A stretch of DNA of 64,000 nt from Chlamydiota bacterium (GTDB lineage: Bacteria; Chlamydiota; Chlamydiia; Chlamydiales; JAAKFR01). Positions 22,473-64,000 of the stretch are shown in pieces (the first letter of the stretch is position 1; every line of letters begins with the position of its first letter). Made by a program: the position numbers and the translations under genes. The notes under the pieces are model-generated. The model had not been told where the DNA came from. It ran no database searches and saw only the letters and a list, made by a program, of their open reading frames with translations. The stretch spans positions 3,045 to 67,044 of the forward strand of contig JABDDZ010000001.1 in the NCBI GenBank assembly GCA_013287335.1, given 5' to 3'.

Positions 22473-23561
22473 ATGGCGCAAGAAAAACAAGTTGTTGTGA
22501 TTACAGGGAGTTCCGGAAGAATCGGAACTCGTTTAATTGAAACGATTTCTAATAATTATCAGTGTGTTGGACTAGACTTTCTCGCTATTTCTCCGATTGT
22601 TCCCTCTATGGAATTTGTCTATGTTGACCTCTCATCGGATGAGAGCGTCGAAAAGGCTTTTAGTCGAATCAAGTATGCTTATGGTAATAGGATCACCTCT
22701 ATTGTGCATCTAGCAGCATTTTATAGCTTTACAGGCAAAAATCTAGAACTTTATGAGAAGATCACCGTGAAGGGGACAGAGCGTATTTTGAGATACTCTA
22801 AGGGGTTTGAGGTAGAGCAGTTTATCTTTACAAGCACCCTACTTGTCCATAATCCTACTACAAGAGGGCAGGTGATTACGGAAGACTCTCCGATCGAAGG
22901 CAAGTGGCACTACCCCGCCTCAAAAGTGAGAACTGAAAAACTGATCCGCGAGCAGCATGGAGATGTTCCAATTGTTATTATCCGTATTGCTGGCTGCTAT
23001 GATGAGGGGTGCAACTGCATTCCCATTTCGCAGCATATCGTGCGCATTTACGAAAAGCAATTTGCAAGCAAGGTTTTCCCGGGGGATGTGAACCATGGGG
23101 TGCCTTATACTCATTTTAATGATTTCTGCGAGATGGTTCAGGTTCTTATCCAAAAAAGAAAAGAGCTTCCCAAAGAGGAGATTTTTCTCTGCTGTGAGGA
23201 AGATTCGATCTCTTATTATGATCTGCAGCAGCAGATCGCCCAGCTTCTTTATGGAAAAGAGTGGCCTATGGTCCGCATTCCCAAATGGTTTGCAAAATTT
23301 GGCGCATGGGCTCAAGGGCTAGCTCCTGGACCTGCACCCTTTATCAAGCCCTGGATGGTTGATCTTGCCGATGATAACTATGAGGTCTCAATGAATAAGT
23401 CTCGGCAAGTGATAGGATGGGCTCCGAAGCGGCAGCTGCGCAATATTCTGCCAACGATCATCCAAAATATGAGGGCCGATCCAGTGGCCTGGTATAAAAG
23501 GCATAACATCCCTCTTTCAAGCTTTGTAAAGAGAAAAGGAAACGTTAAAGGTAAACTATGA
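22473..23561 (+). CDS. NAD(P)-dependent epimerase/dehydratase (extended SDR)
   Basis: VVVITGSSGRIGTRLIE Rossmann motif and YPASKVRTEK (YxxxK). I prefer ATG 22473 over the TTG at 22458. Confidence 0.75.
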   Translation: MAQEKQVVVITGSSGRIGTRLIETISNNYQCVGLDFLAISPIVPSMEFVYVDLSSDESVEKAFSRIKYAYGNRITSIVHLAAFYSFTGKNLELYEKITVKGTERILRYSKGFEVEQFIFTSTLLVHNPTTRGQVITEDSPIEGKWHYPASKVRTEKLIREQHGDVPIVIIRIAGCYDEGCNCIPISQHIVRIYEKQFASKVFPGDVNHGVPYTHFNDFCEMVQVLIQKRKELPKEEIFLCCEEDSISYYDLQQQIAQLLYGKEWPMVRIPKWFAKFGAWAQGLAPGPAPFIKPWMVDLADDNYEVSMNKSRQVIGWAPKRQLRNILPTIIQNMRADPVAWYKRHNIPLSSFVKRKGNVKGKL

Positions 23562-25899: not shown

Positions 25900-26733
25900 T
25901 TAATCTTCTTTCTTTTCTTCTCCAACTCCTTGACTTTTTGCTAATGCTTCTAGCTCAGCAAAGTTTTTAATTACTCTAAGCTTTCCATCATATTCCAGGA
26001 ACTCACATTGAATTCTGGCAATCTCTCTCTCTAATTCGTTAATATTAGCTGCTTTTGTTATTTCTATATGAAATACATCTATTCCACTACTAATGTCTCT
26101 TGTACTGGCAGGTGAATATACTGTAAAACTTCTTTGCCCTTTATCATCTGCTTCGGTATGAACGTATATCATATACTGATTATACAAATGCATCAGAAAA
26201 TTCTGATTACCGAACAAATCCTTTACTTTCTTTGTTTGATCAGCATTACTAGGTATAAAAGATCTTTCTTTAATTGTTTTCCAAATCTTGCTAATTAATA
26301 TCGTGCCAACGCCTCCTCCTAAGACAACCGTATAACCAGTAATCCCAGCAGCGGTCATTGCTACGGGCAGCCAACTATAGGATTGAGTTAAAAGGGTATT
26401 AAGTTTGTCTAGATGTAGGAAGCTGAGATTTGCTTTTGCAAAGGCTGTGCCTCCAAGCCATCCTGCACCTCCTGTGGCAGCAGTAGCTAAAAGAGCTAGT
26501 GCAACAAGTGTTGCTACAATTGCTGCAATAATGGGGCCTTTGTGGTTGGAAACAAATGCCTGGAGACTAGTCTTAGTAGCAGCCTTAACAACTTCTTCAT
26601 CAGCATTCGAAACCTTATCTTTTACCTCTTTAGTCACCTCATCACTAATATGTGATTTAATCTGACTGCCATCTATTTCTACTTCTTCTATTTCTACGTC
26701 TAGTATGAATCTGTCTACTTCTGGTAAAGACAT
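25900..26733 (-). CDS. Inc-like membrane protein, paralog 1 (subfamily A)
   Basis: Acidic N-region; conserved core IIAAIVATLVALALLATAATGGAGWLGGTAFAKANLSFLHLDKLNTLLTQSYSWLP followed by a second hydrophobic lobe; ~130-aa C-terminal domain. AGGAG RBS. Confidence 0.8.
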   Translation of the reverse strand: MSLPEVDRFILDVEIEEVEIDGSQIKSHISDEVTKEVKDKVSNADEEVVKAATKTSLQAFVSNHKGPIIAAIVATLVALALLATAATGGAGWLGGTAFAKANLSFLHLDKLNTLLTQSYSWLPVAMTAAGITGYTVVLGGGVGTILISKIWKTIKERSFIPSNADQTKKVKDLFGNQNFLMHLYNQYMIYVHTEADDKGQRSFTVYSPASTRDISSGIDVFHIEITKAANINELEREIARIQCEFLEYDGKLRVIKNFAELEALAKSQGVGEEKKED

Positions 26734-26801
26734 CTTAGTTCTCCTAATTATTTTGTTTATTATTAACAGCTTGTCTCTGTTTGCTCACTATTATAACTTA
26801 A

Positions 26802-26830
26802 AATTATTTATACATAATTAAGAAGCACAA
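26802..26830 (-). promoter_or_regulatory. Sigma-70/66-like promoter of paralog 1 (TTGTGC-N17-ATAATT)
   Basis: On the plus strand, gcacaa lies at 26825-26830 and aattat at 26802-26807, with exactly 17 nt between. The same architecture occurs upstream of paralogs 2-4. Confidence 0.55.
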
Positions 26831-26930
26831 CATTTTTAAAAAATCTTATATTATATATAACTTTATCAGACCCAATTTGGCCACAGCATTGCCCTGATTG
26901 TATTGCTTCTTAAATCTTTTAAGAATGAGG

Positions 26931-34394: not shown

Positions 34395-36291
34395 TCCTGT
34401 AGCAGAGGAGGAGAGTCTCTATCTGTTAGCTTTAAAAAAATCGTTAAATACAATCTTACCGCCTGGTTTTTTTCCAAAGGAGCTCGATAAAAATCCTCAT
34501 CTTAGAGCCCAAGCGGTTGAAAGGTGGCATCAGCTTTTACCCCTTATCGAATGGACCCCTTTAAAAAAACCTCCCTTTTATCTCTCTTTTTTTCTCTGCT
34601 GCCCATTTCGTCAGAATGCCTTTCGCTTCTTTCAGGAGATGATCTGCCGTTGGCTTATTCCAGGTACAGGAATCGATGCTTTCTTGCAGTTTGCCATCAA
34701 TTTTTATATTCCAGATCTTTGCAACACGCAATATCTGGCTGGGCAAGTTGTTGTGAATATCGAAACCTTAAAAGAGCTAGAACTGGTAGAGAAAAACCTT
34801 CCTATTTTAGAGACAGAAATCCGTCTTGGAATGCAATCTGCCTACCAGGCTAACCGAATATTAGAGATTAAAGGACTCTCTTCCGATGAAAAAACGGGGA
34901 TGATTCAGGAAAATATTGCAATGCTTGTCAAGCATCGCCCCCAGGATTTTGACTATGATCTCTTCTCAGAAATGCAACATCTTTTAGTCTTCTGCAAAGA
35001 GGAGTTTAAACATCCTAGATCCTATAAACATATGAGCCGCCTCATCTGTTTTTTTTATCTCTTTAGAAAAGCCCTTATGCACTCTTCAGAGGCTTTTCCC
35101 GAGAGGCGCTTTGTGAGTGTCAAGCTTATTCGAGTGACCCTTTTGCAACACAATGTAAAGAGACGCGTTTTGGGGGTTGTGATAGGACTCAGCTTTTTAA
35201 GAGAAAATGAGATCTTCACCCAACGGCATATCTTGAAAGCTATAAAAAGCTATATTCCTAATACAAGGGTAATTAAGGGTTCCTTCTTTAAGAATGCATC
35301 ACGCCACAATCCGACCTGTTTGGCTTATTTGGAGGTAGAGAAAGAGGATGAATCTCCCTTTACCATCGATGAGACAAGCGGTTTAAAAGAGGAGCTGCCC
35401 CATGCTATTGGCGAGTGCATAGAAAAGAGTTATAACCTTATTTTTATGCCCCAAAATGAAGAGGAGGTTTTTCGAGGAATCCTGGCTTTATCAAACCAGC
35501 TTACATATATGAGAGATCTGCCTCAAGCCATGATCTCCTTTGAAAAACAGACCGAAAGCCATCTGGAATTTTTAGTGATTGTTGTGCGCATTGTGAAACC
35601 TGCTTCTATACCCATCCAGGACCTTTTTGAGACAAGGCCTACATTTTTACATTTCATTCCCGATCGTATTAAAGTTGTGGGACTTCTTCGCAAAAAATAT
35701 CGTAAAGAGGCGAATGTATTCAGGCTGCAAGCTAAAAAGGATCACTATTTAAGGCATGACCATTCCGTCGACCTATATAAAGCACGCAGCGAGGTCGCTG
35801 AGGAGCTTGCTCGCATTGTTGGCGAGTTTAGAGACTTTAATGGGGGAACAATTTCTAAAGAGAATGAGCTCTTTGCAAATCTTCGCAAGCTCGTTGGAAA
35901 AAAAGGGCAGGAGCATGCTTTTTTGTTAGAAAATTTCTTTTATTCGCTGGGCCCCGCTGTGATGCGGAGCGTCCTTAAACCTGTGCCGCTTAAAAAACTT
36001 TTTTTTATGCTCCTTGAAGCAGCGCATTTTGAGGGGAAAGAGAGGGAGGCGATAGAGATGCGTACTTTGGAAGATAGAGAGTTTTCTTATATGGTACTTC
36101 TTTCTAAAGAACCCTATTTTCGCACGGAAGTTTTGAGTGCAATTGAGCGGACTATAACAGATGGGAGCCAGGTTGCAACTTGCTTTGTAACTCATAATGG
36201 CCTATTCTGTATGGGAATTTTAGATAGAATTATAGCTCATGAGAGTGCATTAAAATTGCGCTTTGCAATTGAGAGTGTGCTCACAAACTGA
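34357..36291 (+). CDS. Hypothetical protein; stand-alone copy of a ~650-670-aa domain also found at the N-terminus of 36848..40402
   Basis: Collinear similarity to the next large ORF, e.g. QAMISFEKQTESHLEFLV vs QMMLFFEKQTDTALIFTL, VGEFRDFNGGTISKENELF vs FGEMRDYDGGLILKQQELF, and LLENFFYSLGP vs LLENFFYSITP. The start is uncertain (34270 in the track; ATG 34357 minimises overlap with lysC). Confidence 0.7.
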   Translation: MKVRGPLHLKITSPVAEEESLYLLALKKSLNTILPPGFFPKELDKNPHLRAQAVERWHQLLPLIEWTPLKKPPFYLSFFLCCPFRQNAFRFFQEMICRWLIPGTGIDAFLQFAINFYIPDLCNTQYLAGQVVVNIETLKELELVEKNLPILETEIRLGMQSAYQANRILEIKGLSSDEKTGMIQENIAMLVKHRPQDFDYDLFSEMQHLLVFCKEEFKHPRSYKHMSRLICFFYLFRKALMHSSEAFPERRFVSVKLIRVTLLQHNVKRRVLGVVIGLSFLRENEIFTQRHILKAIKSYIPNTRVIKGSFFKNASRHNPTCLAYLEVEKEDESPFTIDETSGLKEELPHAIGECIEKSYNLIFMPQNEEEVFRGILALSNQLTYMRDLPQAMISFEKQTESHLEFLVIVVRIVKPASIPIQDLFETRPTFLHFIPDRIKVVGLLRKKYRKEANVFRLQAKKDHYLRHDHSVDLYKARSEVAEELARIVGEFRDFNGGTISKENELFANLRKLVGKKGQEHAFLLENFFYSLGPAVMRSVLKPVPLKKLFFMLLEAAHFEGKEREAIEMRTLEDREFSYMVLLSKEPYFRTEVLSAIERTITDGSQVATCFVTHNGLFCMGILDRIIAHESALKLRFAIESVLTN

Positions 36292-36847: not shown

Positions 36848-39800
36848 ATGATGTACGAAAATTCTAGGAACATACTTCTCTATCCGAGCCCAAAAACCTC
36901 TGAGGGCCCTGATTTTCCCTTTGCTTTGGAAAAATACATCTCTCCGCAATTTTTTTTTCACACGGCCTCCGCTGAGCAGGAGAGAGAAGTAAAGGAGATA
37001 GCCAATCTCTTAAGGAGCATCATTTCTAAAGAAAACCTAGCTTCGCTGGAGCTATTTTCGAGCTGGATTAGATCAAGCATGCCTTTTGTTACCTGGAAGC
37101 ATCCGACCACACTCTTCAATCGCTTCTCCATTTTTATGCTCTGTTTTTCTTCTCAGGATTTTAAACAGGAGGAGTTTTTTGTAGAAATGGTGAAAAACCA
37201 GCTTATTCCGGGACAAGAAATCTCTCTCTATTCATTCCGCTGTTTGCATTTTTACCTTAAAATTTATTCTCCTCAATCTTTCTTGCTGATAGAGAGTGTT
37301 GTCGCTCTTAAAGAACACAAATCCGTTGAAATGATGCAGAAGCGCCTTCCGGCTTTTGCAGAAACCATCTCTTTGGGATGCAGATCTTCTAAAGCTGCAA
37401 AATCGATGCTTCTTAATTCGTTATACACTACTCATCAGCAGCTTCAGTTTTCCTGGCAGACAATTTTTCTTATTCAGAAAAATCTGAAACGTTGGGTTAA
37501 ACGGTTTCCTCACTATTTTGATGTTGGTTTATTTGTTGAATTGGCGCGCTTTTTGGCAATCTGCTCGCCTATCTACCTAGAGCAACGCTTGGCAAAACAC
37601 GTTTGTCGGTTAGTGATCTCAAAATTCTGGATGCAAAAAACAATACTGCGAGCGCTTCTAACAAACTCAGAAAGGCGCCACCTCTGCCTCCGTCTCCTAC
37701 CCACACAGCTTCACTCTTTTTTTGAAAAAAAGCCTGTGCTTGGAATTTTCATTACCCTCTCTCTTTTTGATAAATATGAGTCCTTTGATGAAGAGCATGT
37801 CCTTGTGGCCATCCAAAAATGGATGCCTGATGTTCTTCCCGTCAAGAGCTCTCGCTATTTATACCGTAATCCGCATGATGAGAGAGTGCTTATCCTTTAT
37901 GTTGAAGTAGATAAAAAAAGCGGCGAGCCTTTTTCGCTGCAGGAAAGAACGCTGCTTAAAAAAAGGCTTCTACAAGAGCTTAAAGAGAGTGTCCAAAAAT
38001 TGATGCCTGCTCTTTTCACTATACGCAATGAAGAGAAAGTCATGAAAAGCATTATCACTCTTAGCCAGGAGTTGAATCAGATCTCTTCCCTGCCTCAGAT
38101 GATGCTCTTTTTTGAAAAACAAACAGATACAGCACTGATCTTTACTCTTCTTCTTGTTTACTTGGCAAAGGGGCATTCGATTAAGATCGAGGAGCGCTTG
38201 CAGCAGCTCAATTCCCATTTAAAGGTCTCTCTTGAGCGGAGAGAGATTGTTGGATATTTGGAAGAGGAGGAGCCCAAAGAGGCAGCAATTTTTCATGTTC
38301 AGCTTCCTAAGACAATGGATATTCTTAGAAGAGATTTTGCAGTGAATGTCTATAAGGGCAGGCAAAAAGTTGTGGAATTTTTGCATGAGATTTTTGGGGA
38401 GATGCGAGATTATGACGGGGGTTTGATCCTCAAACAGCAGGAGCTCTTTTTTCAGCTGCAAGAGCAATTTCCTGATCTTGTTAAAGAAAAAAGCAGTCTA
38501 CTTGAAAACTTTTTCTACTCTATAACACCCATTGAAAGGCAAGCTACTCTTCCTCTTACAAAACTTAGAACCCTCTTTTCCCTCATCCTCACCTCATTGG
38601 AAGAGAATCTCAAAAAAAAGGACTCCTATGTCTTTAATCATCACGCAACCGAGAGGCATCTTTTCGTATGCATACGTGCCGAAAACCCTGCTTTAAAAAA
38701 GTATATTCTTCAGAAAACTAACGCTCTCCCTCTCTCCGCAAGGCAATTGACGACAAGCATCTTTCATTTTCAAGAGACGATTGGTTGGGGATTTATTTTA
38801 GAATCTGATGAACCCACTGTTTTCTCTCTCTGGATTGAAAGTTTGAAAGAGGCGATCAATCAGTGGAAGAAAGAGAGGGAGGAATTTCAAGTTCTCCGTC
38901 TTAATTTAGGCAGTAATCCCATCTCTCTCGACCCTCGGATGGCTGGAGACCATATTTCGAAAGTCATTCTGAGCATGCTTTTTGAGGGGTTAATGCGTTT
39001 AGTACCGGGTAATAAGGCGGAGCTTGCAATTGCTCGAAAGGTCGATATTTCTCCTGATTTAAAGAGTTATGTGTTTCATTTGCGAAACTGTCTCTGGTCC
39101 AATGGAATGCCTGTTCAAGCTCAAGATTTTGAGTATGCCTGGAAAAAAATTCTCTCCCCAGAGTTTAAAACACCCTTTGCATATTTTTTATATCCTATAA
39201 AAAATGCGCGTGCAGCAAAAAACGGGAGCATTTCTCTTGACAAGATAGGTGTTTATGCTTTGGATGACTTAACTCTACAGGTTGATTTATCACATCCCAT
39301 TCCCTATTTTTTAGAATTGACAGCACTACCTATCTTCTCTCCTGTTAATGCTTCTATAGATAAAGCAAATCCCCATTGGACCGCTTCTGAGGGAGAGGCT
39401 TTTGTCTGCAATGGTCCCTTTTTTATTAAAAAAAATCCGAAAGGAGAGAGTTACCTTTTAGAAAAAAATCCTCTCTATTGGGATGAGCGAAATATTCATC
39501 TGAACCAGGTCATATTTTCTACAACAAATGCCCGCATTTCCTTGGAAATGTTTAAGAACGACGAACTTGATTGGTTAGGACGTCCTTTACGACCTTGGGA
39601 TTCTCTTTTTGAGTTAGCAAAAAGTGAAAAGACAGAAACGGTTTTTTTAGTGAATCGTGTCTATTGGTGCTCTTTTTCCGTAAGAAAATTTCCTTTCAAT
39701 TGCGTAAAACTCAGACAAGCACTCTCTTTAGCGATTGATAGGCAAGAAATTGTTGAAATGCTATGCGACGGTGTTCCAGCATTTTCTCCACTTCCTTCCA

Positions 39801-40402
39801 ACCATGCTCAATATCCCTTTTATGGTAATACAAAGGGTGAGCCTGAGCTTGCAAAACAACTCTTTGAGGAGGCTCTAAAAGAGCTAAAGCTTACTTTGGG
39901 AACATTTCCAACATTACGATTGATCTATCCAGAAGCTGAGAGACGTCAAAAAATCGCGACCATCCTCGCTCATCAATGGAAAAAGGTCTTAGGTATTGAT
40001 GTCCACGGGCAAGATTGCGAATGGTCAACTCTTTTTCAAAAAATCACTGATGGGGATTATGAAATGGCCTGTATTGGCTGGTATCCCTCTATTGATGACC
40101 CTCTTTATACTCTAGATGTTTTTAAACAAGATGGAGATGAATTGAACTTCCCCAAATGGGAAGATAAAGAGTTTCGCGAAATAGTGGATGCAGCCTCTTA
40201 TGAAACAGATTCCGTGAAACGGAATCGCTACCTGGCACGCGCAGAAGCTATTCTGATTAAAGAAGTGCCTTTGATTCCTCTGATCTACGAACGAGATCAG
40301 GCGATTAAGAAAAATTTTTTGAATGTCAATATTATCAATGATTTTGTTGATTTCAAAAAAATTAATCTGAAGAAGATAAAACAAACCAAAAATGGAGAAT
40401 AA
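36848..40402 (+). CDS. Fusion protein: N-terminal ~690-aa unknown domain plus C-terminal family-5 solute-binding (OppA/DppA-like) domain
   Basis: The C-terminal part (LRLNLGSNPISLDPRMAGDHISKVILSMLFEGLMRL...VFHLRNCLWSNGMPVQAQDFEYAWKKILSP...) matches the SBP_bac_5 pattern. The N-terminal part is paralogous to 34357..36291. There is no signal peptide at the N-terminus. Confidence 0.8.
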   Translation: MMYENSRNILLYPSPKTSEGPDFPFALEKYISPQFFFHTASAEQEREVKEIANLLRSIISKENLASLELFSSWIRSSMPFVTWKHPTTLFNRFSIFMLCFSSQDFKQEEFFVEMVKNQLIPGQEISLYSFRCLHFYLKIYSPQSFLLIESVVALKEHKSVEMMQKRLPAFAETISLGCRSSKAAKSMLLNSLYTTHQQLQFSWQTIFLIQKNLKRWVKRFPHYFDVGLFVELARFLAICSPIYLEQRLAKHVCRLVISKFWMQKTILRALLTNSERRHLCLRLLPTQLHSFFEKKPVLGIFITLSLFDKYESFDEEHVLVAIQKWMPDVLPVKSSRYLYRNPHDERVLILYVEVDKKSGEPFSLQERTLLKKRLLQELKESVQKLMPALFTIRNEEKVMKSIITLSQELNQISSLPQMMLFFEKQTDTALIFTLLLVYLAKGHSIKIEERLQQLNSHLKVSLERREIVGYLEEEEPKEAAIFHVQLPKTMDILRRDFAVNVYKGRQKVVEFLHEIFGEMRDYDGGLILKQQELFFQLQEQFPDLVKEKSSLLENFFYSITPIERQATLPLTKLRTLFSLILTSLEENLKKKDSYVFNHHATERHLFVCIRAENPALKKYILQKTNALPLSARQLTTSIFHFQETIGWGFILESDEPTVFSLWIESLKEAINQWKKEREEFQVLRLNLGSNPISLDPRMAGDHISKVILSMLFEGLMRLVPGNKAELAIARKVDISPDLKSYVFHLRNCLWSNGMPVQAQDFEYAWKKILSPEFKTPFAYFLYPIKNARAAKNGSISLDKIGVYALDDLTLQVDLSHPIPYFLELTALPIFSPVNASIDKANPHWTASEGEAFVCNGPFFIKKNPKGESYLLEKNPLYWDERNIHLNQVIFSTTNARISLEMFKNDELDWLGRPLRPWDSLFELAKSEKTETVFLVNRVYWCSFSVRKFPFNCVKLRQALSLAIDRQEIVEMLCDGVPAFSPLPSNHAQYPFYGNTKGEPELAKQLFEEALKELKLTLGTFPTLRLIYPEAERRQKIATILAHQWKKVLGIDVHGQDCEWSTLFQKITDGDYEMACIGWYPSIDDPLYTLDVFKQDGDELNFPKWEDKEFREIVDAASYETDSVKRNRYLARAEAILIKEVPLIPLIYERDQAIKKNFLNVNIINDFVDFKKINLKKIKQTKNGE

Positions 40403-42869: not shown

Positions 42870-45413
<2,544 letters not shown>

Positions 45414-45426
45414 GAGTTAATTAGTT

Positions 45427-47940
45427 ATGACCGATTTTCGAGAAAATGAGACAGTGATTCCAAAGAATCTCGAAGAAGAGATGAAAGAGAGTTATCTCCG
45501 CTATTCGATGTCAGTGATTATCTCTCGCGCTCTTCCCGATGTCCGTGATGGGCTTAAGCCCTCTCAGAGAAGAATCCTCTATGCGATGAGGCAGCTTAAT
45601 TTGACACCGGGAGCAAAACATAGAAAGTGTGCAAAGATCTGCGGGGATACTTCTGGAGATTATCATCCCCATGGAGAATCTGTAATTTATCCAACACTTG
45701 CCAGGATGGCTCAAGATTGGCTCATGCGTTACCGCCTGGTAGATGGGCAGGGTAACTTTGGCTCAATCGACGGCGACCCTCCAGCTGCTATGCGTTATAC
45801 TGAAGCGCGCCTCACAATAAGTTCGATGTTTCTAATGGAGGATCTCGATAAAGAGACGGTGGATATGGTCTCAAACTATGATGAGACAAAAGTCGAACCG
45901 ACAGTTTTTCCGGCAAAATTTCCAAATCTTCTATGCAATGGCTCTTCGGGTATTGCAGTGGGGATGGCAACAAATATTCCCCCTCATAACCTTAATGAAT
46001 TGATTGCCTCTACTCTGCTTGTTTTGGAAAATAAAGATGTGACAATCGATGAGATTTTGAAGGTGATGCCGGGCCCCGATTTTCCAACAGGGGGCGTTAT
46101 CTGCGGCGTCTCTGGCATTAGAGAGGCTTTTCATACCGGGCGAGGAAAGCTCCTTTTGCGAGGTAAACTCCATATTGAAGAGAATCCCACAACGCCCGGA
46201 CGCGAACGGATCGTCATTGATGAGCTCCCTTATAATGCCAATAAAGCAAGACTTGTTGAGCAGATTGCCGACCTTGTCAATAACAAGGCTATCACAGGCC
46301 TTTCAGATGTGAGAGATGAATCGGATAAAGATGGGATGCGCATTGTTTTAGAGCTTAAAAGGGCTGAACTTCCCGATGTCGTGATCAACCAGCTCTATAA
46401 GTTCACTGATCTGCAGGTGACTTTTGGCTGCAATGTGCTCGCTTTAGATAAAAACCTTCCTCGGACGATGAATATCCGGCAAATCATTACAGCCTGGATC
46501 CACCATCGTATCGATGTGATTCGTAGAAGAACACGTTTTGAGCTCAATAAAGCGGAGGCAAGAGCCCATATTTTAGAGGGGTATCTAAAGGCTGTGGCTT
46601 ATCTCGATGAGGTCGTGGCAATTGTCCGCCGCAGCCCTAATAAAGACATGGCAAGAAACACTCTTTGTGAACGCTTTGATCTCTCCGAAAGGCAGGCAAA
46701 CGCTGTTTTAGATCTCCGTCTCTACCAGTTAACAGCTTTAGAGCAGGATAAGATCAACGAGGAGTACCAGGCTCTTCTTGAAAAGATTCAGCAGTTAAAG
46801 GCGATTCTTGGATCTGAGATTCTAGTCCGTGAAATTATCCGTGATGAGCTTTTAGAGATCCAAAAAAACCACAAATCTCCGAGACTTACGCAAATAGTCC
46901 AGGCCGAAGGGGAGTTTCAGGTAGAAGATCTAATTGCCAATGAGCCTGTTATCATCACCATCTCTGAAGATGACTATGTAAAACGGATGCCGATCGACCT
47001 TTTCCGCGAGCAGAGACGTGGGGGACAGGGAGTGACGGGATTCGATATCAAGCGGGAGCATGATGCTCTTAAAGGGCTTTATGTTGCGACAACGCATGAC
47101 CATCTTCTTGTCTTCACTGATCAGGGGCGCTGTTATTGGCTCAAAGTATGGCAGCTTCCGGAAGGGGAGCGACGCTCAAAGGGACGCCCTCTTGTCAATT
47201 TATTGGAAGAGATCCAACCAGAAGAGAAGATTGCAACCATTTTGCGTACTAAAGACTTTAATGAGACGGATGCAATTTTGATGGCTACCCGTAAAGGGGT
47301 AGTGAAAAAGACTCTTCTCTCTGCATTTAGTAACCCGCGTAAAAAGGGGATTCGCGCTTTAGAGATCGATGAGGGGGATGAGATGATTGCAGCCCTGCTT
47401 GTAAAGCCGAATGAGCAGGCGATGCTCTTTACTCATCATGGGATGGCAGTCCGTTTCAATGCATCTCTTGTCCGTTCGATGGGCCGGACAGCACGCGGGG
47501 TAAAGGGAGTGACTTTAAAAGAAGCGGATGATTATGTTGTAGGATGTGCGGTTGTTAGCGGAAAAGAGGAGGAGGAGGAGACGATTCTTGTCGTCTGTGA
47601 AAAAGGCTTTGGAAAAAGGTCCTCTGTCTCTGATTTTCGACAAACAAACCGTGGGGGCAAGGGAGTCCGTTCGATTATCACCTCTTCACGCAATGGAAAT
47701 GTGATTGGCGCCATGTCAATTAAGGATAAAGATGGCCTTGTGATGATGACCTCCCAAGGACAAGCGATCCGTATCAGCATGGAAGATCTCCGTGTCATGG
47801 GACGTGCCACCCAGGGTGTTAAACTTGTAAATCTTAAAGAAGATGATCTCCTCCTTGCCATCCAAAAAATTGAGGGGATTGAAGAGAAAGAACTGGAAAG
47901 CGGAGGAGAGAAAGATGCAGCTGCGCCACAAGCCCTATGA
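45427..47940 (+). CDS. gyrA: DNA gyrase subunit A
   Basis: DGLKPSQRRILYAM, GDYHPHGESVIYPTL and AAMRYTE (active-site Tyr context), plus C-terminal beta-pinwheel repeats. Confidence 0.97.
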   Translation: MTDFRENETVIPKNLEEEMKESYLRYSMSVIISRALPDVRDGLKPSQRRILYAMRQLNLTPGAKHRKCAKICGDTSGDYHPHGESVIYPTLARMAQDWLMRYRLVDGQGNFGSIDGDPPAAMRYTEARLTISSMFLMEDLDKETVDMVSNYDETKVEPTVFPAKFPNLLCNGSSGIAVGMATNIPPHNLNELIASTLLVLENKDVTIDEILKVMPGPDFPTGGVICGVSGIREAFHTGRGKLLLRGKLHIEENPTTPGRERIVIDELPYNANKARLVEQIADLVNNKAITGLSDVRDESDKDGMRIVLELKRAELPDVVINQLYKFTDLQVTFGCNVLALDKNLPRTMNIRQIITAWIHHRIDVIRRRTRFELNKAEARAHILEGYLKAVAYLDEVVAIVRRSPNKDMARNTLCERFDLSERQANAVLDLRLYQLTALEQDKINEEYQALLEKIQQLKAILGSEILVREIIRDELLEIQKNHKSPRLTQIVQAEGEFQVEDLIANEPVIITISEDDYVKRMPIDLFREQRRGGQGVTGFDIKREHDALKGLYVATTHDHLLVFTDQGRCYWLKVWQLPEGERRSKGRPLVNLLEEIQPEEKIATILRTKDFNETDAILMATRKGVVKKTLLSAFSNPRKKGIRALEIDEGDEMIAALLVKPNEQAMLFTHHGMAVRFNASLVRSMGRTARGVKGVTLKEADDYVVGCAVVSGKEEEEETILVVCEKGFGKRSSVSDFRQTNRGGKGVRSIITSSRNGNVIGAMSIKDKDGLVMMTSQGQAIRISMEDLRVMGRATQGVKLVNLKEDDLLLAIQKIEGIEEKELESGGEKDAAAPQAL

Positions 47941-48583
47941 GGGACTGTTTATCACACTAGAGGGGGGAGATGGTTGTGGAAAATCTACACTCTCCGCGCT
48001 TCTATCAAAAGAGCTTGCAAAAAAGGGGTATCCAGTTCTCAAGACAAGAGAACCTGGAGGAACCCCTCTTTCAGAGCATCTTCGCGACGTGGTCCTTAAG
48101 CCAGATCCAAACCGGCCCGTTGGAGAGAGAGCTGAGCTGCTTCTTTTTTTAGCTGCGCGTGTGCAGCATATCGATGAGGTGATTTTACCGGCCCTAAGAG
48201 ATCGTAAACTACTTATCTGCGAGAGATTCAACGATTCAACAATCGCCTACCAGGGATGTAGAAAACACGTTGGAGTCCATGTTGCCGAGCAGATTTGCGA
48301 TCTGGCTTGCAACCATCTGGTGCCTGATCTGACCCTTTTATTAGATCTTGACCCCATCATAGGGCTTCAACGTCTGTCAAAGGAAAGAAAGAATTTGGAT
48401 CGTTTAGAGCAAGAAGAGCTCCAGTTCCATATAGAGGTGCGTACAGCTTATTTGCATTTAGCAGATAAATACCCGGAACGTATTATTATTATTGATGGCT
48501 CTGCAACTCCCGAAGAGGTGTGCGCAGCTTCTCTCAAGGCTCTGGAACCCCACTTAATGTTAAAGCCCACCTCTCTCTCATGA
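47915..48583 (+). CDS. tmk: Thymidylate kinase
   Basis: LFITLEGGDGCGKST P-loop and TREPGGTPL. I chose ATG 47915 with the ggaggagag RBS; it overlaps the gyrA end by 26 nt. Confidence 0.9.
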   Translation: MQLRHKPYEGLFITLEGGDGCGKSTLSALLSKELAKKGYPVLKTREPGGTPLSEHLRDVVLKPDPNRPVGERAELLLFLAARVQHIDEVILPALRDRKLLICERFNDSTIAYQGCRKHVGVHVAEQICDLACNHLVPDLTLLLDLDPIIGLQRLSKERKNLDRLEQEELQFHIEVRTAYLHLADKYPERIIIIDGSATPEEVCAASLKALEPHLMLKPTSLS

Positions 48584-49392
48584 GCTTGCCGCCTGTTTTA
48601 GAGAGAATGATTGAGAGCGAAACAATTCCCCATGCTCTTCTTTTTACTGGAGATGCACGCATTGCAATGGCAGATGCCTTTACACAGACCCTCCTTGGAT
48701 GCGATGACAAATGGAGAGCTGATCTCCATCGCTACCATCCAGAAAAAAAGAGTGGATTGCATCCTATTTCTCACATCCGCTCTCTTATTAATGAGGTAGC
48801 TTTTTTTCCCTACGCCGGTAAATGGAAGGTCTTTATTATCTATGATGCGGAACGGATGCTTCCACCGAGCAGCAATGCTCTTTTAAAAACTCTGGAGGAG
48901 CCTACCCCAAATACTCTGCTTCTACTATTAAGCGGGCACCCAAATAACCTGCTCCCTACCATCCGCTCGCGCTGTCAGACCTATTTTTTCCAAGGAGTGC
49001 ATAAAGAGCGCTCTCTTTCGGAGCAGCTTCTTCTCCAACTTCTCTGCTCTCCTCAAAGAGAGGATTACCTCTATTTGCGCAAAGAGATCGAGAAGATCTG
49101 CCAAGAAAAAGAAAAGGGCGAGGTTACAATTGAAATGCATGAGGAGGGAATGCTTCTTTTTGCAACTATCCTTGAGTGGGCGCGGGATCTCCTTGCCCTT
49201 CTTTGCGGTTCAAACCACTTAATTCACAAGGATTTTTGCTCCCACTACGAACAGTATTTAGCTTCAAACCCTCTTCCTGATCTCTTTCACATGGAGCAAA
49301 AAGTCAAAGATGCTAGAATATCCCTCGAACGCTCTCTAAAACTCTCCACCTGCCTCGAAGCCCTTCTCCTAAAGCACGAGTCTCTTGTGTAA
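48580..49392 (+). CDS. holB: DNA polymerase III delta-prime subunit
   Basis: IPHALLFTGD, ANALLKTLEEP-like NALLKTLEEPT, and SRCQ. The start overlaps the tmk stop in an ATGA arrangement. Confidence 0.8.
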   Translation: MSLPPVLERMIESETIPHALLFTGDARIAMADAFTQTLLGCDDKWRADLHRYHPEKKSGLHPISHIRSLINEVAFFPYAGKWKVFIIYDAERMLPPSSNALLKTLEEPTPNTLLLLLSGHPNNLLPTIRSRCQTYFFQGVHKERSLSEQLLLQLLCSPQREDYLYLRKEIEKICQEKEKGEVTIEMHEEGMLLFATILEWARDLLALLCGSNHLIHKDFCSHYEQYLASNPLPDLFHMEQKVKDARISLERSLKLSTCLEALLLKHESLV

Positions 49393-49445
49393 GGAATAAA
49401 GAGTCGGGTTTGCCCGTGTGCGTGCCCGATCTTTATTCTTATGGG

Positions 49446-50519
49446 TTAGCCAAGGGTGATCTGTTTGCAAAGGTAGATATCTTGGACAAGATGAAGCATC
49501 TTAATGCCATCTTTCATGGGCCGTTGAAAGGCCTTGCGGCCGGTGATAAGACCAATGCCGCCCGCTCGTTTATTAATGATCGCAGTTTTTGCAGCCTCGG
49601 CAAAGTCATTTTTGCCCGAAGCGCCGCCTGAGTTAATCAAACCAATTCTGCCCATGTAGCTATTAATTACCTGGTAACGGCAGAGGTCAATAGGGTGGTC
49701 GGTGCAGAGATCGGTGTACATTTTCTCCGAATACTTTCCAAATTTCACAGCTTTATATCCGCCATTTAATGTAGGAAGCTTCTGTTTGACAATATCGGCG
49801 CCAATTGTTGCTCCAATGTGATCTGCCTGACCCGTTAAGTCAGCCGAAGTGTGGTAGTCACCCGTAGCAACATCAAAGGCAGGATTGCGTAGGTAGCACC
49901 AAAGGATCGTTGCCATCCCTAGGTCGTGAGCATGGGCAAAGGCCTGACTTACTTCTGTGATCTGTCTATCGCTTTCAGGAGATCCAAAATAGATGGTAGC
50001 TCCAACTGCTACGCATCCCATATCGTAGGCTTGCTTAACAGTGGCGAAGAAAATTTGATCATATTTATTTGGATAGGAGAGGAGCTCATTGTGATTTAAC
50101 TTCAAAATAAAGGGAATCTTATGAGCGTATCGTCTCGAAACTGTCCCCAAAACTCCGAGAGTGGAGGCAATCCCATTACAGCCTCCCTCGATTGCCAACT
50201 GAACCAAATTTTCTGGGTCAAAGTAATCGGGATTAGGTGCAAAAGAGGCCCCAGCAGAGTGTTCAATTCCCTGGTCTACAGGAAGAATTGAGAGATAACC
50301 TGTCTTTTTAAGGCGGCCATGGTCAAAGAGGGCTTGCAATGATCGTAAAACCCGATTACTTCTGTCGGAACAGTTAAAGATACGGTCGACCCAATTACTA
50401 TCGGGGATATGAAGCCTCTCTTTGGGGACTTTGCAACTATAAGAAAGTAGGGAATCTGCTTCGTTCCCCAGCAAGTTTTGAATCTCATCTAATGTGCTTT
50501 GTGCCTCTGAAACGACCAT
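49446..50519 (-). CDS. fbaB: Class I fructose-bisphosphate aldolase, DhnA/FbaB type
   Basis: Collinear with DhnA-family aldolases ([30 protein letters not shown]). I prefer ATG 50519 with the acggggga RBS over the GTG at 50552. Confidence 0.8.
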
Positions 50520-50635
50520 ATTAATCCCCCGTTCTTTGGATTTACTTTGCACATCTGTGGATTTTTTTTACAAATAATTTTGTCTAGTTTATCATATTAA
50601 TACCAAATTAAGAAAGTAGTAGTAAATGGTATAAG

Positions 50636-51661
50636 ATGAATAAAAATGCTCTGATAGAGCTTGAAAAAGTCTCCAAGTGTTTTACTCCCGAAAAAGATGC
50701 TCTCCAAAGCATTGATCTTGAGATTTTTCCAGGGGATATCTTTGGAATTATAGGCCGAAGCGGCGCTGGGAAATCGACTCTTTTACGCTGTTTATGCGGT
50801 TTAGATGCTCCCACCTCCGGTAGAGTGTTTTTTGATGGAGAGGATCTCTCCTTGCAAGGCTCCAAAGAGCTGAGAAAAAAGAAGCAGTCGATGGGAATGG
50901 TCTTTCAACATTTCAATCTGCTCTCTTCCCGAACTGCCTTTGGCAATGTGAGCTTTCCTCTTGAAATTGCAAAAGTCCCTGATGAGGTCCGGAAAAAAAA
51001 AGTCCCCCATCTCCTCTCTCTTGTAGGTCTCAGCGGTAAGGAGAACTTCTATCCAGCAACCTTAAGTGGCGGAGAAAAACAGAGGGTTGCTATTGCAAGG
51101 GCAATAGCCAATGATCCCAAAGTCCTCTTCTGCGATGAAGCAACCTCGGCACTTGATCCTGCTAATGTAAAATCTCTTTTGGATCTATTAAAAGAACTCA
51201 AAGGAAAGCTCAATCTCACCATAGTGATCATTACTCATCAAATGGAGGTGATTAGAGAAATATGCACAAAAGTCGCTGTTCTTGAAGAGGGAAAAATAGT
51301 GGAGGAGGGGAGAGTCTCCGATCTTTTCGCCGCTCCCAAACACCCAACCACACGCCGTTTTTTACACCATTTGACCCATGACCTCCCCGATCATATCTTC
51401 GGAAATCCCAATCAAGAGCTCCTGCGTCTTTCTTTTAGAGGGGAAAAGGCCAAAAAACCTCTGATCTCTCGCCTGCTTCGTCATGCAAATATCGAAGTCA
51501 ATATTCTGGCAGGTTCTATAGATGCCCTTCAAAATGAGGTTGTTGGCCATCTTGTTGTAGAATTTGTGGGAGATGAGGCGGAAAAAGCCAAAGCCCATGA
51601 TTTTTTACAAAAAGAGAAGATCACCTATGAACGATTAACCCCCCGCGAGTTAAAAGAATGA
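50636..51661 (+). CDS. metN: Methionine ABC importer ATP-binding protein with C-terminal NIL domain
   Basis: GRSGAGKST, LSGGEKQRVAIARA and LFCDEATSALD; C-terminal NIL-type domain (NIEVNILAGSID). Confidence 0.9.
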   Translation: MNKNALIELEKVSKCFTPEKDALQSIDLEIFPGDIFGIIGRSGAGKSTLLRCLCGLDAPTSGRVFFDGEDLSLQGSKELRKKKQSMGMVFQHFNLLSSRTAFGNVSFPLEIAKVPDEVRKKKVPHLLSLVGLSGKENFYPATLSGGEKQRVAIARAIANDPKVLFCDEATSALDPANVKSLLDLLKELKGKLNLTIVIITHQMEVIREICTKVAVLEEGKIVEEGRVSDLFAAPKHPTTRRFLHHLTHDLPDHIFGNPNQELLRLSFRGEKAKKPLISRLLRHANIEVNILAGSIDALQNEVVGHLVVEFVGDEAEKAKAHDFLQKEKITYERLTPRELKE

Positions 51662-52338
51662 CTTTTCAAGAGAATTTAACCTTAACGCTCCGTCTTGTGC
51701 CTATTGAGTTTTTAAATACACTCTATATGGTCTTTGTTTCAGGATTTTTTGCTTTTTTAATAGGAGTTCCTTTGGGTGTGCTGCTCTACGCGAGCGATAA
51801 GTCAGGCTTATACCCCTCTCCCTGGATCTATAGGGGAATGGGGACAATTGTCAATATTGGTAGATCCATCCCCTTTGCAATTTTAATTGTTGCAATCATC
51901 CCATTCACAAGATGGATTGTTGGCACAAGCCTGGGTACAACTGCATCAATAGTTCCGCTCACAATTGCCGCCGCCCCTTTTATGGCGAGAGTCATTGAGG
52001 GGGCTCTTAAGGAAGTAGGTGGGGAGATGGTCGAAGCTGCTACCACAATGGGTGCAACCAAAGCATTTATCATCTCAAAGGTCCTATTTCCTGAAAGCCT
52101 CCCAACCATTGTTTCTGGTGTAACTCTTGCCTTAGTCACTCTGGTAGGCTACAGCGCTCTTGCAGGGCTTGTCGGAGGCGGAGGACTTGGAAAAATTGCT
52201 ATCCAATATGGGTACCAAAGGTTTAATGGTTTTTTAATGATCATCACACTAATCTTGATTGTCCTTCTAGTGGAGGGGATCGAATATATGGGTAATGCCC
52301 TTGTGCGATCCATAGAGAAAAAAAGAGGAAAAAGATGA
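51658..52338 (+). CDS. metI: Methionine ABC importer permease
   Basis: MetI-type permease with the EAA-loop region EAATTMGATKAFIISKVLFPESLP. ATGA overlap with metN. Confidence 0.85.
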   Translation: MTFQENLTLTLRLVPIEFLNTLYMVFVSGFFAFLIGVPLGVLLYASDKSGLYPSPWIYRGMGTIVNIGRSIPFAILIVAIIPFTRWIVGTSLGTTASIVPLTIAAAPFMARVIEGALKEVGGEMVEAATTMGATKAFIISKVLFPESLPTIVSGVTLALVTLVGYSALAGLVGGGGLGKIAIQYGYQRFNGFLMIITLILIVLLVEGIEYMGNALVRSIEKKRGKR

Positions 52339-53126
52339 AAATAAAAGTAGTTGTCTTATCTATTTTAATCGCTTCTCTCCTTATAGGTTGTCAAGAGCGT
52401 TCAAAGCCTTTAAAAATTGCTGCCACAAGCGTTCCTCATGCTGAGATGCTTGAAGTGGCAAAAGAGGAACTTTCTAAAAATGGGGTCGTTCTCAAGATTA
52501 TCATTGTTGATGACTATAATATTCCAAATCGGCTCTTATCCGAGGGGGAGGTCGATGCCAACTTTTTCCAACATACCCCCTTTTTAGAAGAACAAAAAAA
52601 ACAGTTCGGTTTCGATATCGAAGTATTAGAAAGAGTTCATCTTGAACCATTGGGGATTTATTCGAAATGCATTAAAGATCTTAAAGATCTAAAAGAAAAA
52701 GCCCTGGTTGCAATTCCCAATGATCCAACAAATGAGGCTAGAGCTCTCTTACTTCTGCAGAAAGAGGGTTTGATTGAACTAAGGCCCTCAGCAGGATTTA
52801 ATGCTACCCCTCTTGATATTCTCAGTAACCCCCTTAGATTGCGGTTTAAAGAGCTTGATGCATCCTTTCTAGCTAGAACCCTTGAGGATGTCGACATTGG
52901 AGTGATTCCCGCAAACTTTGCCTTATCAGTCTCTCTTTTCCCTTTAAAAGATGCCCTCGCTTTAGAGAGTGCGGAAAACTCCCCTTATGCAAACATTGTT
53001 GCTATTAGAAAAGGGTCCGGAAATGAAAGAAGGCTTCTTTTACTAAAACGAGAGCTCACTTCCAATAAAATGAGACAATTTATCCTTGAGCGCTACCAAG
53101 GGGAGATTTACCCCGCTTTCAATTGA
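52335..53126 (+). CDS. metQ: Methionine-binding lipoprotein (NlpA/MetQ family)
   Basis: Lipobox LLIGC; NlpA-family blocks (DANFFQHTPFLEEQ, IAIPNDPTNEARALLLL). Confidence 0.85.
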   Translation: MKIKVVVLSILIASLLIGCQERSKPLKIAATSVPHAEMLEVAKEELSKNGVVLKIIIVDDYNIPNRLLSEGEVDANFFQHTPFLEEQKKQFGFDIEVLERVHLEPLGIYSKCIKDLKDLKEKALVAIPNDPTNEARALLLLQKEGLIELRPSAGFNATPLDILSNPLRLRFKELDASFLARTLEDVDIGVIPANFALSVSLFPLKDALALESAENSPYANIVAIRKGSGNERRLLLLKRELTSNKMRQFILERYQGEIYPAFN

Positions 53127-53246
53127 ACTCAACTGATAGAAAAAAATTTAAATAAACTATGGCGCTTTTTCTTAATATTACATTAATAATTTTCAATTAT
53201 AATAAGCTCATATTCAAATAAAATATAGTTAAGACAAGGCATTATT

Positions 53247-56200
53247 ATGAGTGGCACATCCTCAGCTAGCAATGAGAACAGTAAGGTCTATGAGCTCAAG
53301 TATCGAATGGGAGATAACAGAAGCGTTATTTTTACCCTGGAGCATCCCAGTGGCCTGGATACTACTAAAAAAATTAAAGACTGTCTCTATTCAATTTGGG
53401 ATGCCGAAACACGCCGTTATCATGCAAAGGGAAAAACATTCGGCAATAGAGAAAACATTACCATCTGGGGTTTCGATGAAAATACCCAGCGGTATGTTTA
53501 CGAAAACAAAGAGGAAGGGTTAAACGAAGGAGATCTACCGGCTCCAAAATTGACAATGCATCCTACTTTTGATCAAGCATTTGCCGTGCATGAGTTTTCG
53601 CTAAAAACTCTTAATAAAGAAGAGCCCACAATCTACACCGTTATTTTCGATACGCTTTCAGCGGCTTTTTCACTTATTTTTTCTCCGGTTACACAACTTT
53701 ACAAAATTCTTTCGCACCAAATTTTCCCTAAAGGTCAGGAACCGCATGAGTTTGTTCAAAATCTTGGCTCGGCAAACCATAAAGAACTTCTCTCCCAGCT
53801 TCGTTTTTTGCAAAGCCTTTTTGAAAATGTAGATGCTGTGGCTGCAAAAGGTTCCCACATCTTAGATGATGGGGATGAAGAGATACCTCAAAAGGGAGGC
53901 TTTGCGCTTTCATCTTCCGATCTAACTTATAGAGAGTGGTTTGAATTAAATGGAAGATCATTTAAGGAATATTTTATTTCGCTTTTTGCTGACCTTTCCG
54001 CTCCCCAAAAATCGGGCCCCCCCTCTGCTGGAAGAGATAAGCTCACTCCTACGACAACACCATGCAAAAGAGTTGCTCAAATCTTAGAGGATGCGCATTC
54101 AATCGGAACGTTAATCGAAACAGCCCGTAACGCAAATAACCGCAAAGAGCGTCTCAAGGCTATTATCAAGATAGAGGAAAAATTCGAATGTCTTAAAAAA
54201 GGAGAGATCAATCGTTTAATAGTCCCCTTTGCTTTTGGCGATGGTAATAACTCTGTTTCTCATTTCCTAATTTTCGAAAGGGAATCGGGAGTTATCAAGC
54301 ATGTCACTTTCTCTTCTCCTACCTTGTCTAAAAGTACCCCTGCGGTAACAGAATATACAATTCCCTCTCTTCTTGATGGAAAGATGGATCAAGGTAAAAT
54401 AAAGGAGTTTTTTGAAAAACTACCTTCAAACATCTTTTATGGGAATTGGGGGGAAAAAATCAATCAGCACGTTACTCCGATCCACCGATTTATCACACAG
54501 TTAGTAGCTATTTCCTCTTGTAACGATCCGAAGTGCCCTGTCGATGACCAAACCGGCATTGATATATATCATCTATTCAAATCAGCTGATGATGATGGCC
54601 TAATCGATGAAAATAAATTCCAACAGACTCCCTATAAGATCATCGAATATTTCCTTTGTCCCGAAGAACAGAAGGGGCCTCATGAGAGGAATGATTTTAT
54701 TTCCCGTCTTCTGCTTACCTATGCAAGACAAGATGCTCCTCCCTATGTACCCGCTGGATATAAATTACCCCCTGTTGGAGCGGATATTAAAGAGGAATGT
54801 TATTATAAGCGGGGGCCTTACACCAAAGTTAGCCGTGACCCGATAAAGCTCCTTTACACTGTTATAAAAAATTTAGATAAAGAAAGGCCCTTAGATTTTT
54901 TAGCTTCTAAAGCTACTTTTTTAGAGGCCTATATGAATCATCTAGTAGCTCTCTTAGAAGAAAAATCTTCTACTTTCTCTTCTCGTGAGCTTGAAGCAAT
55001 CTACGTAAATCTTGGGAAATACCTTGATGAGCTGAAACACTTTTTAGGAAAAGAAGTAGGCAAAACGGCAGCTTCGCAGGTTGTAAAACCTTTTGCAGAC
55101 GCTATTAAGAAAAAACTTCCCGATCTCAAACTCACTCTGGTTCGCGAGGATGAGCAAAAGAAGAAGCTAGAGCAGCAGCCCCTGATTTTTACTGCTACAC
55201 TCGATTCAAAAATTGAGGAGGCTATTGATCCAGGCAATAATCAATCTGTAAATTTGGATGATGTCGACCCTTCGCGCGTGAGCCATGATGACTTTAATAA
55301 AGTTGCTGAGCTCGACAATTGTTTTTCTACGATCAATGCAGTAGCTGAGGAGAGTGAACTACCAACTACAGAAGAGCAACAGGATCAGGCAGAAGCGCAA
55401 GAGCTCTTTGACACTCATCTCAGAGCTGTAGTTGATAGAGCAGTCCTTGATGAAACAGCCTATAATGTTTCTCAGATATACCTCACTGGCAATACTCCAC
55501 CAGCAATAATTTCTCAAGGGTTTGCTCCGGTTCTGCATGAATTTATTCAAAAGTATAATCAAGCTGTAGGCGCATGTCCTACTCCCAAAGCTCTTCATCA
55601 ATTTCAAGTAGTTTTCCTCAAAGAGATGAATAGAAGCTTTGCACGCAACGTTGCCTCCAAATTTTTAACTGAAGAATTTCCCAAGTTTACTGACAATGAT
55701 AAGGCGTTTTTAGCAGCGCTTGAAAGCGCTCTTTCAAAAAATTACTTTAGTGATGTTAGGGAGGCTCTGGTAGCTTTACAAGTTGACTACCCCGAGCAAG
55801 CTCTCCTCATCGAGATCATAGTCCAATTTAACTATTGTTGCGACATACATACTACAGTATTACTAAAACCACTACTTATTGAAAAGCTTGCGGAACTACC
55901 TGAACTATTAATTATAAAAATACTAAAAAAACTACCAGAGGGAATGCTTGAAGAAATACCTGAAGGTGAGTCTGGGGAAATAATTAGGAAGGGGCTTGAA
56001 GAGATACTTCAAGACAGTACTCAAGAAACAACGGAAGTAATATTTAAACAAATTCCTGAGGGAATGCGTAGAGAGATCCTCTTAAAATTGCCTCCCAAAG
56101 AGGGGTATGCTATGGAGCTTGCCTCTATAGTTGTTCAAGCGATTGAAAGAAGAAAGGCCCATCAGCTTCTAACAGATTTAGACGAGGTTCTTGAGGGTTT

Positions 56201-64000: not shown

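Follow-up and report, generated by a model that had tools for sequence, protein, structure and literature searches.

A 64,000-nucleotide stretch of a Chlamydiota genome (GenBank assembly GCA_013287335.1, contig JABDDZ010000001.1, positions 3,045 to 67,044; this whole stretch is hereafter called the window) ends in an unusual feature, namely an open reading frame (ORF) that starts at ATG 53247 on the plus strand and leaves the right edge without a stop. The question raised by this locus is whether the frame is a gene at all and, if so, what kind of protein it encodes and where that protein might act. A preliminary description of the window had reported it as an unlisted giant ORF of at least 3584 codons that encodes non-repetitive protein and continues past the edge. 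The explanation considered probable overall is that it is a genuine gene whose 647-kDa product belongs to a family of giant proteins and carries a superfamily 2 (SF2) motor that would remodel a polymer, with a lean toward a host-directed role.

Frame 0 is a real gene. From ATG 53247 to 63998, it comprises 3584 codons that are stop-free under translation tables 11 and 4, and the computed translation of 53247..63998 thus contains no in-frame stop, the observation on which the preliminary description had staked its claim. The remaining five frames carry 161-331 stops each over the same 10.75 kb, and the random expectation for 3584 stop-free codons at the local base composition is approximately 1e-97. 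A codon log-likelihood score trained on the identified housekeeping genes of the window averages +0.198 per codon for frame 0, against no more than +0.04 for any of the others, and the frame-0 score exceeds zero in each 1.5-kb slice, lineage-specific stretches included. Codon usage, which had been proposed as a check along with G+C content at third codon positions (GC3), yields a coding signal in frame 0 alone. The ORF is missing from the track because the ORF tool leaves out ORFs that run off an end.

The closest in-frame stop upstream lies at 53226-53228, and ATG 53247 is the earliest ATG downstream of it, with a TTG also present at 53229. The gene is separated from the preceding metQ by an AT-rich spacer of 120 nt (53127..53246, plus strand, read from the sequence), in which a Shine-Dalgarno-like AAGG motif occupies 53236-53239, 7 nt 5' of the ATG; a scan for the sigma-70 consensus gave no plus-strand promoter exceeding chance. 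In addition, the N-terminus of the giant protein aligns with the N-termini of its orthologues.

The complete product is on record. When the 3584-aa translation was searched against 5.8e9 proteins, the sole match was a 5681-aa protein (P0001), i.e., its own full-length product, whose residues 1-3584 are identical to the window translation. P0001 is recorded at NCBI, JGI, and Logan and sits on a 78,028-bp contig, and in SRR8433345_731, a 29,408-bp Logan assembly made independently, the surrounding genes are the same and a gene for a product of 5681 aa is called. The length of the recorded product places the gene end at window coordinate 70292, about 6.3 kb past the edge, as the preliminary description had anticipated in claiming that the gene runs on. 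The window thus holds the first 63% of the gene (53247..64000, plus strand, codons 1-3584 of 5681, as given by translation, the recorded protein, and the Logan gene call), and the part beyond base 64000 is known from the recorded protein alone, not from DNA; when genomes and metagenomes were scanned with the last 1681 aa of P0001, no locus emerged.

The possibility that the frame is non-coding, decayed, or an assembly artefact should be considered at this point, since GC3 of the giant gene lies 10 points under that of neighbouring genes and about 2000 residues lack a homologue. Set against this are the 5681 stop-free codons, the frame-specific coding signal in every slice, the presence of the gene in two independent assemblies, and the intact ATPase motifs described below. 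Such a reading retains next to no probability and is refuted as far as sequence analysis goes. With regard to base composition, GC1 and GC2 of the giant gene equal those of the reference genes and GC3 is 0.333 versus 0.42. Compared with its neighbours (42894-53126), the giant gene (53247-63998) shows a GC3 of 0.333 versus 0.432, a gap that is smaller or nil in its syntenic orthologues. This low GC3, together with the standing of P0001 as the sequence outlier of its family, might stem from faster drift with an AT bias or from replacement of the allele.

The predicted product has a mass of 646.8 kDa and an isoelectric point of 6.0. A hydropathy scan revealed no convincing membrane-like segment, and a search for internal repeats found none, in agreement with the earlier impression of non-repetitive protein. 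The N-terminus (MSGTSSASNENSK) is polar and rich in Ser, Thr, and Asn, without a hydrophobic signal-peptide-like core. A strict Walker regular expression retrieved nothing in the giant protein besides an SNF2-like MGLGKS, and searches of Pfam, NCBIfam, and PDB sequences were empty for the window part as well as for 900-aa overlapping pieces of all 5681 aa. The preliminary description, which had recognised no known catalytic domain, was right for the in-window part, for which Pfam, NCBIfam, PADLOC, and PDB sequences yielded no match. A catalytic module does exist in the protein, an SF2 ATPase, but it is located at aa 3975-4870, outside the window.

This motor is the only recognisable engine of P0001. 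Motif I (RMGLGKST, 4038-4045), motif II (GDEDV, 4193-4197), motif III (SGTG, 4632-4635), motif V (DTRGVDF, 4764-4770), and motif VI (Q4796, R4800, R4802) follow one another in the canonical SF2 order, and the residues invariant in a 46-sequence family alignment are G4042, K4043, D4194, E4195, T4634, G4767, Q4796, R4800, and R4802, with no others. By these motifs, the motor keeps all residues needed for ATP binding and hydrolysis. Among 13 scanned relatives, PF12340 (DUF3638) was above threshold in 10, with a best E of 1.3e-12 (relative P0040, for example, scored 36.5 bits against a cut-off of 31), whereas ResIII was matched by two (weakly), DEAD by two, and PF12359 (DUF3645) by none directly. 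In a word-indexed search, the motor profile retrieved at least seven proteins, all carrying PF12340 and PF12359, with E down to 1.8e-22; these are eukaryote-type proteins, the sole type among the matches listed. Profile-profile alignment with hhalign between the family and eukaryotic DUF6606-DUF3638-DUF3645 proteins gave a probability of 99.5% and an E of 2.8e-23 over 611 columns, running about 500 columns past the RecA1 part. The chlamydial motor is, on this profile evidence, homologous to the DUF3638/DUF3645 module. Since P0001 itself has no Pfam match and its relatives and profile do, the homology emerges at the profile level rather than from the single sequence. Judged in this way, the giant protein is a bacterial variant, missed by Pfam and NCBIfam, of the DUF3638/DUF3645 kind of giant protein.

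DUF3638, which forms a pair with DUF3645 in many eukaryotic proteins, appears in the literature as a widespread domain whose mechanism is undefined (PMC12615304) and as a domain of a large gene family in microsporidia (PMC5423893). The eukaryotic relatives found in this analysis are gene pieces with the layout DUF6606 - DUF3638/DUF3645 - C-terminal part and with neighbours such as MAGE and Med31. The eukaryotic giants (PF20255, PF12340, PF12359; ~3000 aa) share with P0001 a homologous SF2 module, the region between the RecA-like halves included, the P-loop context MGLGKS..I.P, and a very large size with the motor placed in the last third and no other domain recognisable. Differences are also evident, as PF20255 (DUF6606) was undetected in the pieces of P0001 or in 13 members, P0001 is almost twice as long as the eukaryotic giants, and it remains under the Pfam thresholds. 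Hidden Markov models (HMMs) of the chlamydial N-terminal, central, pre-motor, and C-terminal blocks gave no match in eukaryotic proteins, the motor alone being common to both, and hhalign of the N-terminal block against a eukaryotic DUF6606 fragment reached an E of only 0.23. A motif at aa 2402-2418 (LP..I.....F..L.G) resembles the LP..Y.....Y.RLFG that ends the eukaryotic DUF6606 fragment, a likeness that is not significant (E 0.07-0.43), and common ancestry with the eukaryotic giants outside the motor is possible. A herpes-tegument-like deubiquitinase in DUF3638 giants was considered and dropped because PMC9741609 shows no such link. Separately, prokaryote-style gene calling on metagenome contigs cuts three eukaryotic DUF6606-DUF3638/DUF3645 genes (L007 1233-10394, L009 1549-11088, and L010 95-9655) into 3-4 pieces, probably at introns, and an OTT_1508-type deaminase occurs beside MAGE and Med31 among the neighbours of these genes.

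Structural prediction is consistent with the assignment to SF2. An AlphaFold2 model of aa 3975-4870 (13-sequence alignment, mean predicted local distance difference test score (pLDDT) 70.5) comprises two alpha/beta domains, with a mostly helical insert of about 435 aa between motifs II and III. Foldseek comparison of this model with the PDB retrieved mostly SF2 proteins (MDA5, Dicer-2, reverse gyrase, RECQL5, SecA, RIG-I, and DinG) with probabilities up to 0.99. P0001 thus resembles SF2 enzymes such as SecA, XPD/DinG, XPB, and ResIII-type proteins in having motifs I, II, III, V, and VI in canonical order, but differs from these families in giving no significant sequence or Pfam match. Its best PDB sequence profile match (E 0.06) aligns an R..Q ... 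GxGKT stretch with XPB, the R..Q element lying about 20 residues before the P-loop. The insert of P0001 occupies the position at which the PPXD is found in SecA and the Arch domain in XPD, but by all tests run it is unlike either of them. Membership in SecA was likewise not indicated, as SecA_DEAD, PPXD, and HWD/HSD gave no Pfam or NCBIfam match and the likeness is limited to weak structural similarity in the RecA core.

The motor region also provided access to the family as a whole. With aa 3937-5127 as the query, HMMER was run exhaustively against 1.84e9 cluster representatives and identified 98 proteins at E<=1e-3 including P0001 (97 others), 30 of them at E<=1e-30. Most members are 3000-6087 aa long and carry conserved blocks in a common order; 75 have at least 2800 aa (with a median of 3677 aa among these), and 7 exceed 5000 aa, the maximum being 6087 aa. 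P0001 is an outlier whose motor region is only 26-34% identical to that of any other member. Whole-protein phmmer comparison with the family delineated shared blocks at aa 100-700, 1000-1200, 2100-3100, 3500-3700, 3900-4400, 4600-4950, and 5100-5350 of P0001, separated by stretches specific to it at aa ~1200-2086, 3096-3498, 3710-3900, and 5400-5681; about 1300 lineage-specific residues fall in the window part. Five non-motor block HMMs built from the 46-sequence alignment each match 74-93 of the tested sequences, and the whole layout is therefore conserved, with length differences arising from insertions between blocks. It comprises an N-terminal alpha/beta block, a helical block, a central block of about 1000 aa, a helical pre-motor block, the SF2 ATPase, and a C-terminal block. 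No paper describing the bacterial family was found in the literature, and NCBIfam has no bacterial family for the giant protein.

Within the window, all conserved blocks lie on the plus strand. The N-terminal block (aa 1-712, 53247..55382), whose HMM matches 78 members, contains P327, G329, and P338 in the motif LIVPFAFGDG..S.SHFLIF as well as D531-P532 in SRDPIK. Column counts revealed no conserved Cys, His, or Ser triad in this block; a catalytic triad of H339, S356, and D531 had been considered and was rejected because the His and Ser are not conserved across the 78 members. Its profile retrieved nothing from PDB sequences. The second block (aa 966-1198, 56142..56840; HMM matching 74 members) is characterised by L..LP.P...FW..L.......W, in which P1008 is almost invariant, and is followed by a lineage-specific stretch (aa ~1199-2086, 56841..59504) with zero phmmer coverage over aa 1201-2100 and no counterpart in other family members (phmmer) or in any database protein (search of 5.8e9 proteins). 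The central block (aa 2087-3095, 59505..62531) is the best conserved non-motor part of the family, its HMM matching nearly all giant members with 220-840 bits, and it contains the motifs LP..I.....F..L.G, G.W (G2523, W2525), W2650, P2697, and FLY.....L.GE...A..YLE. Its AlphaFold2 model (pLDDT 67) proceeds from helical repeats through a beta-rich part to a helical region resembling tetratricopeptide repeats (TPR). Compared with the PDB by Foldseek, this model gave generic helical-repeat noise and no significant fold (best E 0.29); the sequence profile matched designed TPR proteins only (E 0.011), and a word-indexed search with the profile gave no homologue among the matches listed. Beyond it lie a second lineage-specific stretch (aa ~3096-3498, 62532..63740; zero phmmer coverage over aa 3101-3500) and the start of the pre-ATPase block (aa 3499-3708, of which aa 3499-3584 occupy 63741..63998), whose HMM matches 86 members. 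Among viral models in BFVD, the top match of the central-block model (59505-62531) is the DUF3638 protein of Hokovirus HKV1, a giant virus. The central block itself holds no DUF3638 part. With an E of 0.052, a probability of 0.54, and a TM-score of 0.15-0.18, the likeness is weak and serves as a lead only.

A second giant gene is present at the opposite end of the window (1-9190, minus strand, in the ORFs 1-3783 and 3749-9190), where it was detected by the motor HMM and Pfam PF12340. The motor HMM matches the minus-strand ORF that runs from 3783 to 1 and off the left edge (at least 1261 codons) with an E of 5e-35, and PF12340 matches the same ORF with an E of 1.4e-21. The adjoining 1813-aa ORF (3749-9190, minus) terminates within a G9 run at 3752-3760 (C9 on the coding strand), which the downstream ORF crosses in a different frame. 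A Logan contig of the same sequencing run, SRR8433345_1432, matches the window exactly across 12,656 nt except that it has C8, not C9, at this homopolymer, and there the second giant gene is a single intact ORF of 3495 aa with PF12340 (L011 3467-13410). The frameshift in the window copy comes either from an assembly error at the homopolymer or from true variation in its length, of the slipped-strand phase type. Aligned with the family by hhalign, the second giant protein is collinear over the motor, with a probability of 99.2% and an E of 3.4e-19, and over the central block, with a probability of 80% and an E of 1.4e-5, and the genome therefore holds two distant paralogues of this design. Like the first gene, it combines a DUF3638-type SF2 module with a collinear central block; unlike it, it has no detectable N-terminal block, and its GC3 (0.432) equals that of the neighbours. 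It is very divergent, with phmmer giving no family member at E<=1e-3.

The genomic setting of the first giant gene bears on its evolution and on the nature of the organism. It is preceded by a class I fructose-bisphosphate aldolase gene (fba, 49446-50552, minus strand) and by metN, metI, and metQ (50636-53126, plus strand), all identified by NCBIfam. Combined with tblastn synteny, this fba-metNIQ segment (49446..53126, both strands) serves as a syntenic anchor, since the order fba (minus) - metN - metI - metQ - giant gene is the same in three Chlamydiales metagenome-assembled genomes (MAGs) as in the window; conservation does not extend to the genes downstream of the giant gene. A genome scan with a clade alignment placed five loci, all in MAGs labelled Chlamydiales, Chlamydiae, or Parachlamydiaceae, and three of these five correspond exactly to family representatives. 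The syntenic orthologues in Chlamydiales MAGs point to a Chlamydia-like lineage and therefore to an obligately intracellular organism, which bears out the preliminary description in this respect. By tblastn, identities between the window and the three MAG loci are 75-76% for the aldolase, 55-56% for MetN, 62-64% for MetI, 53-57% for MetQ, and 24-32% (within blocks) for the giant protein; among the three MAG loci themselves, they are 80-85%, 66-70%, 70-76%, 62-70%, and 35-49%, respectively. From the conserved order and these identities it follows that the giant gene is vertically held and positionally conserved and evolves much faster than its neighbours.

These observations also bear on an assignment to anti-phage defence or to a mobile-element helicase. 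Large SF2 helicases occur in many defence systems and two members of the family weakly match ResIII, which would favour such a role. PADLOC, however, returned zero matches for the window part, the motor, and the relative P0034; tblastn against 72,556 plasmids and 50,697 phage records found no relative of the giant protein; and the locus is fixed amid housekeeping genes, with no conserved downstream partner genes. A defence or mobile-element function is accordingly regarded as very unlikely. That the giant protein is a large cytotoxin akin to lymphostatin or the large clostridial toxins, like the plasticity-zone cytotoxins of chlamydiae, is hardly plausible. It is suggested by size alone and by the analogy in the preliminary description, which had placed the protein on the scale of toxins or effectors, but nothing ties the giant protein to toxins. 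No glycosyltransferase (DXD), cysteine-protease, or translocation domain was matched in the 5681 aa or in 13 relatives by Pfam, NCBIfam, or PDB sequence searches, and no Cys or His is found among the family columns listed as invariant or at least 90% conserved.

The function proposed here combines one motor with a platform. The large non-enzymatic blocks may provide a scaffold or substrate-binding platform, on which the single SF2 motor would use ATP to translocate along or remodel a polymer. Because the R..Q element resembles that of ResIII/XPB, a nucleic acid or nucleoprotein complex is favoured over a small-molecule reaction. The protein might further be delivered or exposed to the eukaryotic host, most plausibly via type III secretion. 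This delivery or exposure, rather than an action solely inside the bacterium, is proposed tentatively. It is suggested by the fast divergence of the protein relative to the adjacent genes (24-32% versus 53-76% identity to syntenic orthologues), by the eukaryote-type nature of the relatives outside the family among the matches listed, together with the weak giant-virus lead, and by the lack of a membrane-like segment combined with a polar rather than hydrophobic N-terminus. A host-interaction role, which the preliminary description had suggested, is plausible on these grounds.

The same protein and motor may instead act strictly within the bacterium, for example as a machine of environmental chlamydiae that remodels the nucleoid, RNA, or the developmental cycle and is never secreted. 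Under this explanation, the position beside fba-metNIQ in three divergent MAGs would reflect long vertical inheritance, and the conservation of all blocks across the family, the lack of a demonstrable secretion signal, a size very large for a type III substrate, and the second paralogue in the same genome would all be expected. Less easily accommodated are the divergence of the giant protein at about twice the rate of its neighbours, the thousands of residues gained or lost between members of 3000-6087 aa, the absence of plasmid or phage relatives and of a bacterial NCBIfam family, and the finding that, among the matches listed, profile relatives beyond the family are eukaryote-type only. A purely intrabacterial role is thus considered somewhat unlikely.

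Several points nevertheless weigh against a host-directed remodeller of the DUF3638/DUF3645 kind. An internal function would account equally well for the fixed place on the chromosome and for the retention of every block, and 647 kDa is unusually large for a type III substrate. The substrate may be nucleic acid or protein; SecA and XPD, too, carry an insert between motifs II and III. The link to DUF3638/DUF3645 comes from profiles and other family members rather than from P0001 itself, which matches no Pfam model even at E<=10, and the Foldseek E-values of the motor are weak (best 3.8e-3, none below 1e-3). Taxonomic placement reaches five loci and does not extend to about 90 family members, and a literature search gave no experiment, expression, or secretion data for any family member.

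Several other features of the window deserve mention. At 25900-31520 (minus strand), five paralogous orphan ORFs of 277, 286, 289, 473, and 259 aa form a tandem array with 28-59% identity; the 473-aa ORF is an internal duplication, none of the ORFs has a Pfam match, and the array lies in the lowest-GC stretch of the window (0.376-0.380). Two OppA-like substrate-binding paralogues are encoded at 34270-36291 and 36848-40402 (plus strand) and are 31% identical over 521 aa, the longer (1184 aa) having a 680-aa N-terminal extension with no assigned domain that precedes the OppA part. A type III polyketide synthase-like gene with chalcone/stilbene synthase domains occurs near an S-adenosylmethionine (SAM) methyltransferase gene at 9247-11752 (minus strand), with a 178-aa ORF between them, a pairing unusual for a Chlamydia-like genome. 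One ORF at 23558-24898 (plus strand) joins SPW repeats to a vitamin K epoxide reductase (VKOR) domain. Across the whole 64-kb window, neither a tRNA gene nor an Rfam family reaching the gathering threshold was found.

For an intracellular bacterium, a 647-kDa protein costs about 17 kb of coding sequence, and the presence of at least two such giant genes in one genome therefore implies a strong selective reason for keeping them. In a far-reaching scenario that is regarded as quite improbable, chlamydiae, their protist hosts, and amoeba-infecting giant viruses would share and have exchanged an ancient design consisting of a central beta/helical platform and a DUF3638/DUF3645 motor, the chlamydial versions being host-delivered remodellers of the polymer target of the eukaryotic proteins (for example, chromatin or a ribonucleoprotein). 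If true, these proteins would exceed all known bacterial effectors in size and would open a way into an uncharacterised eukaryotic family. As chlamydiae can be studied in amoebae and in cell culture, the bacterial proteins could give an experimental route to the function of DUF3638/DUF3645 and to a possible exchange of genes between chlamydiae, protists, and giant viruses.

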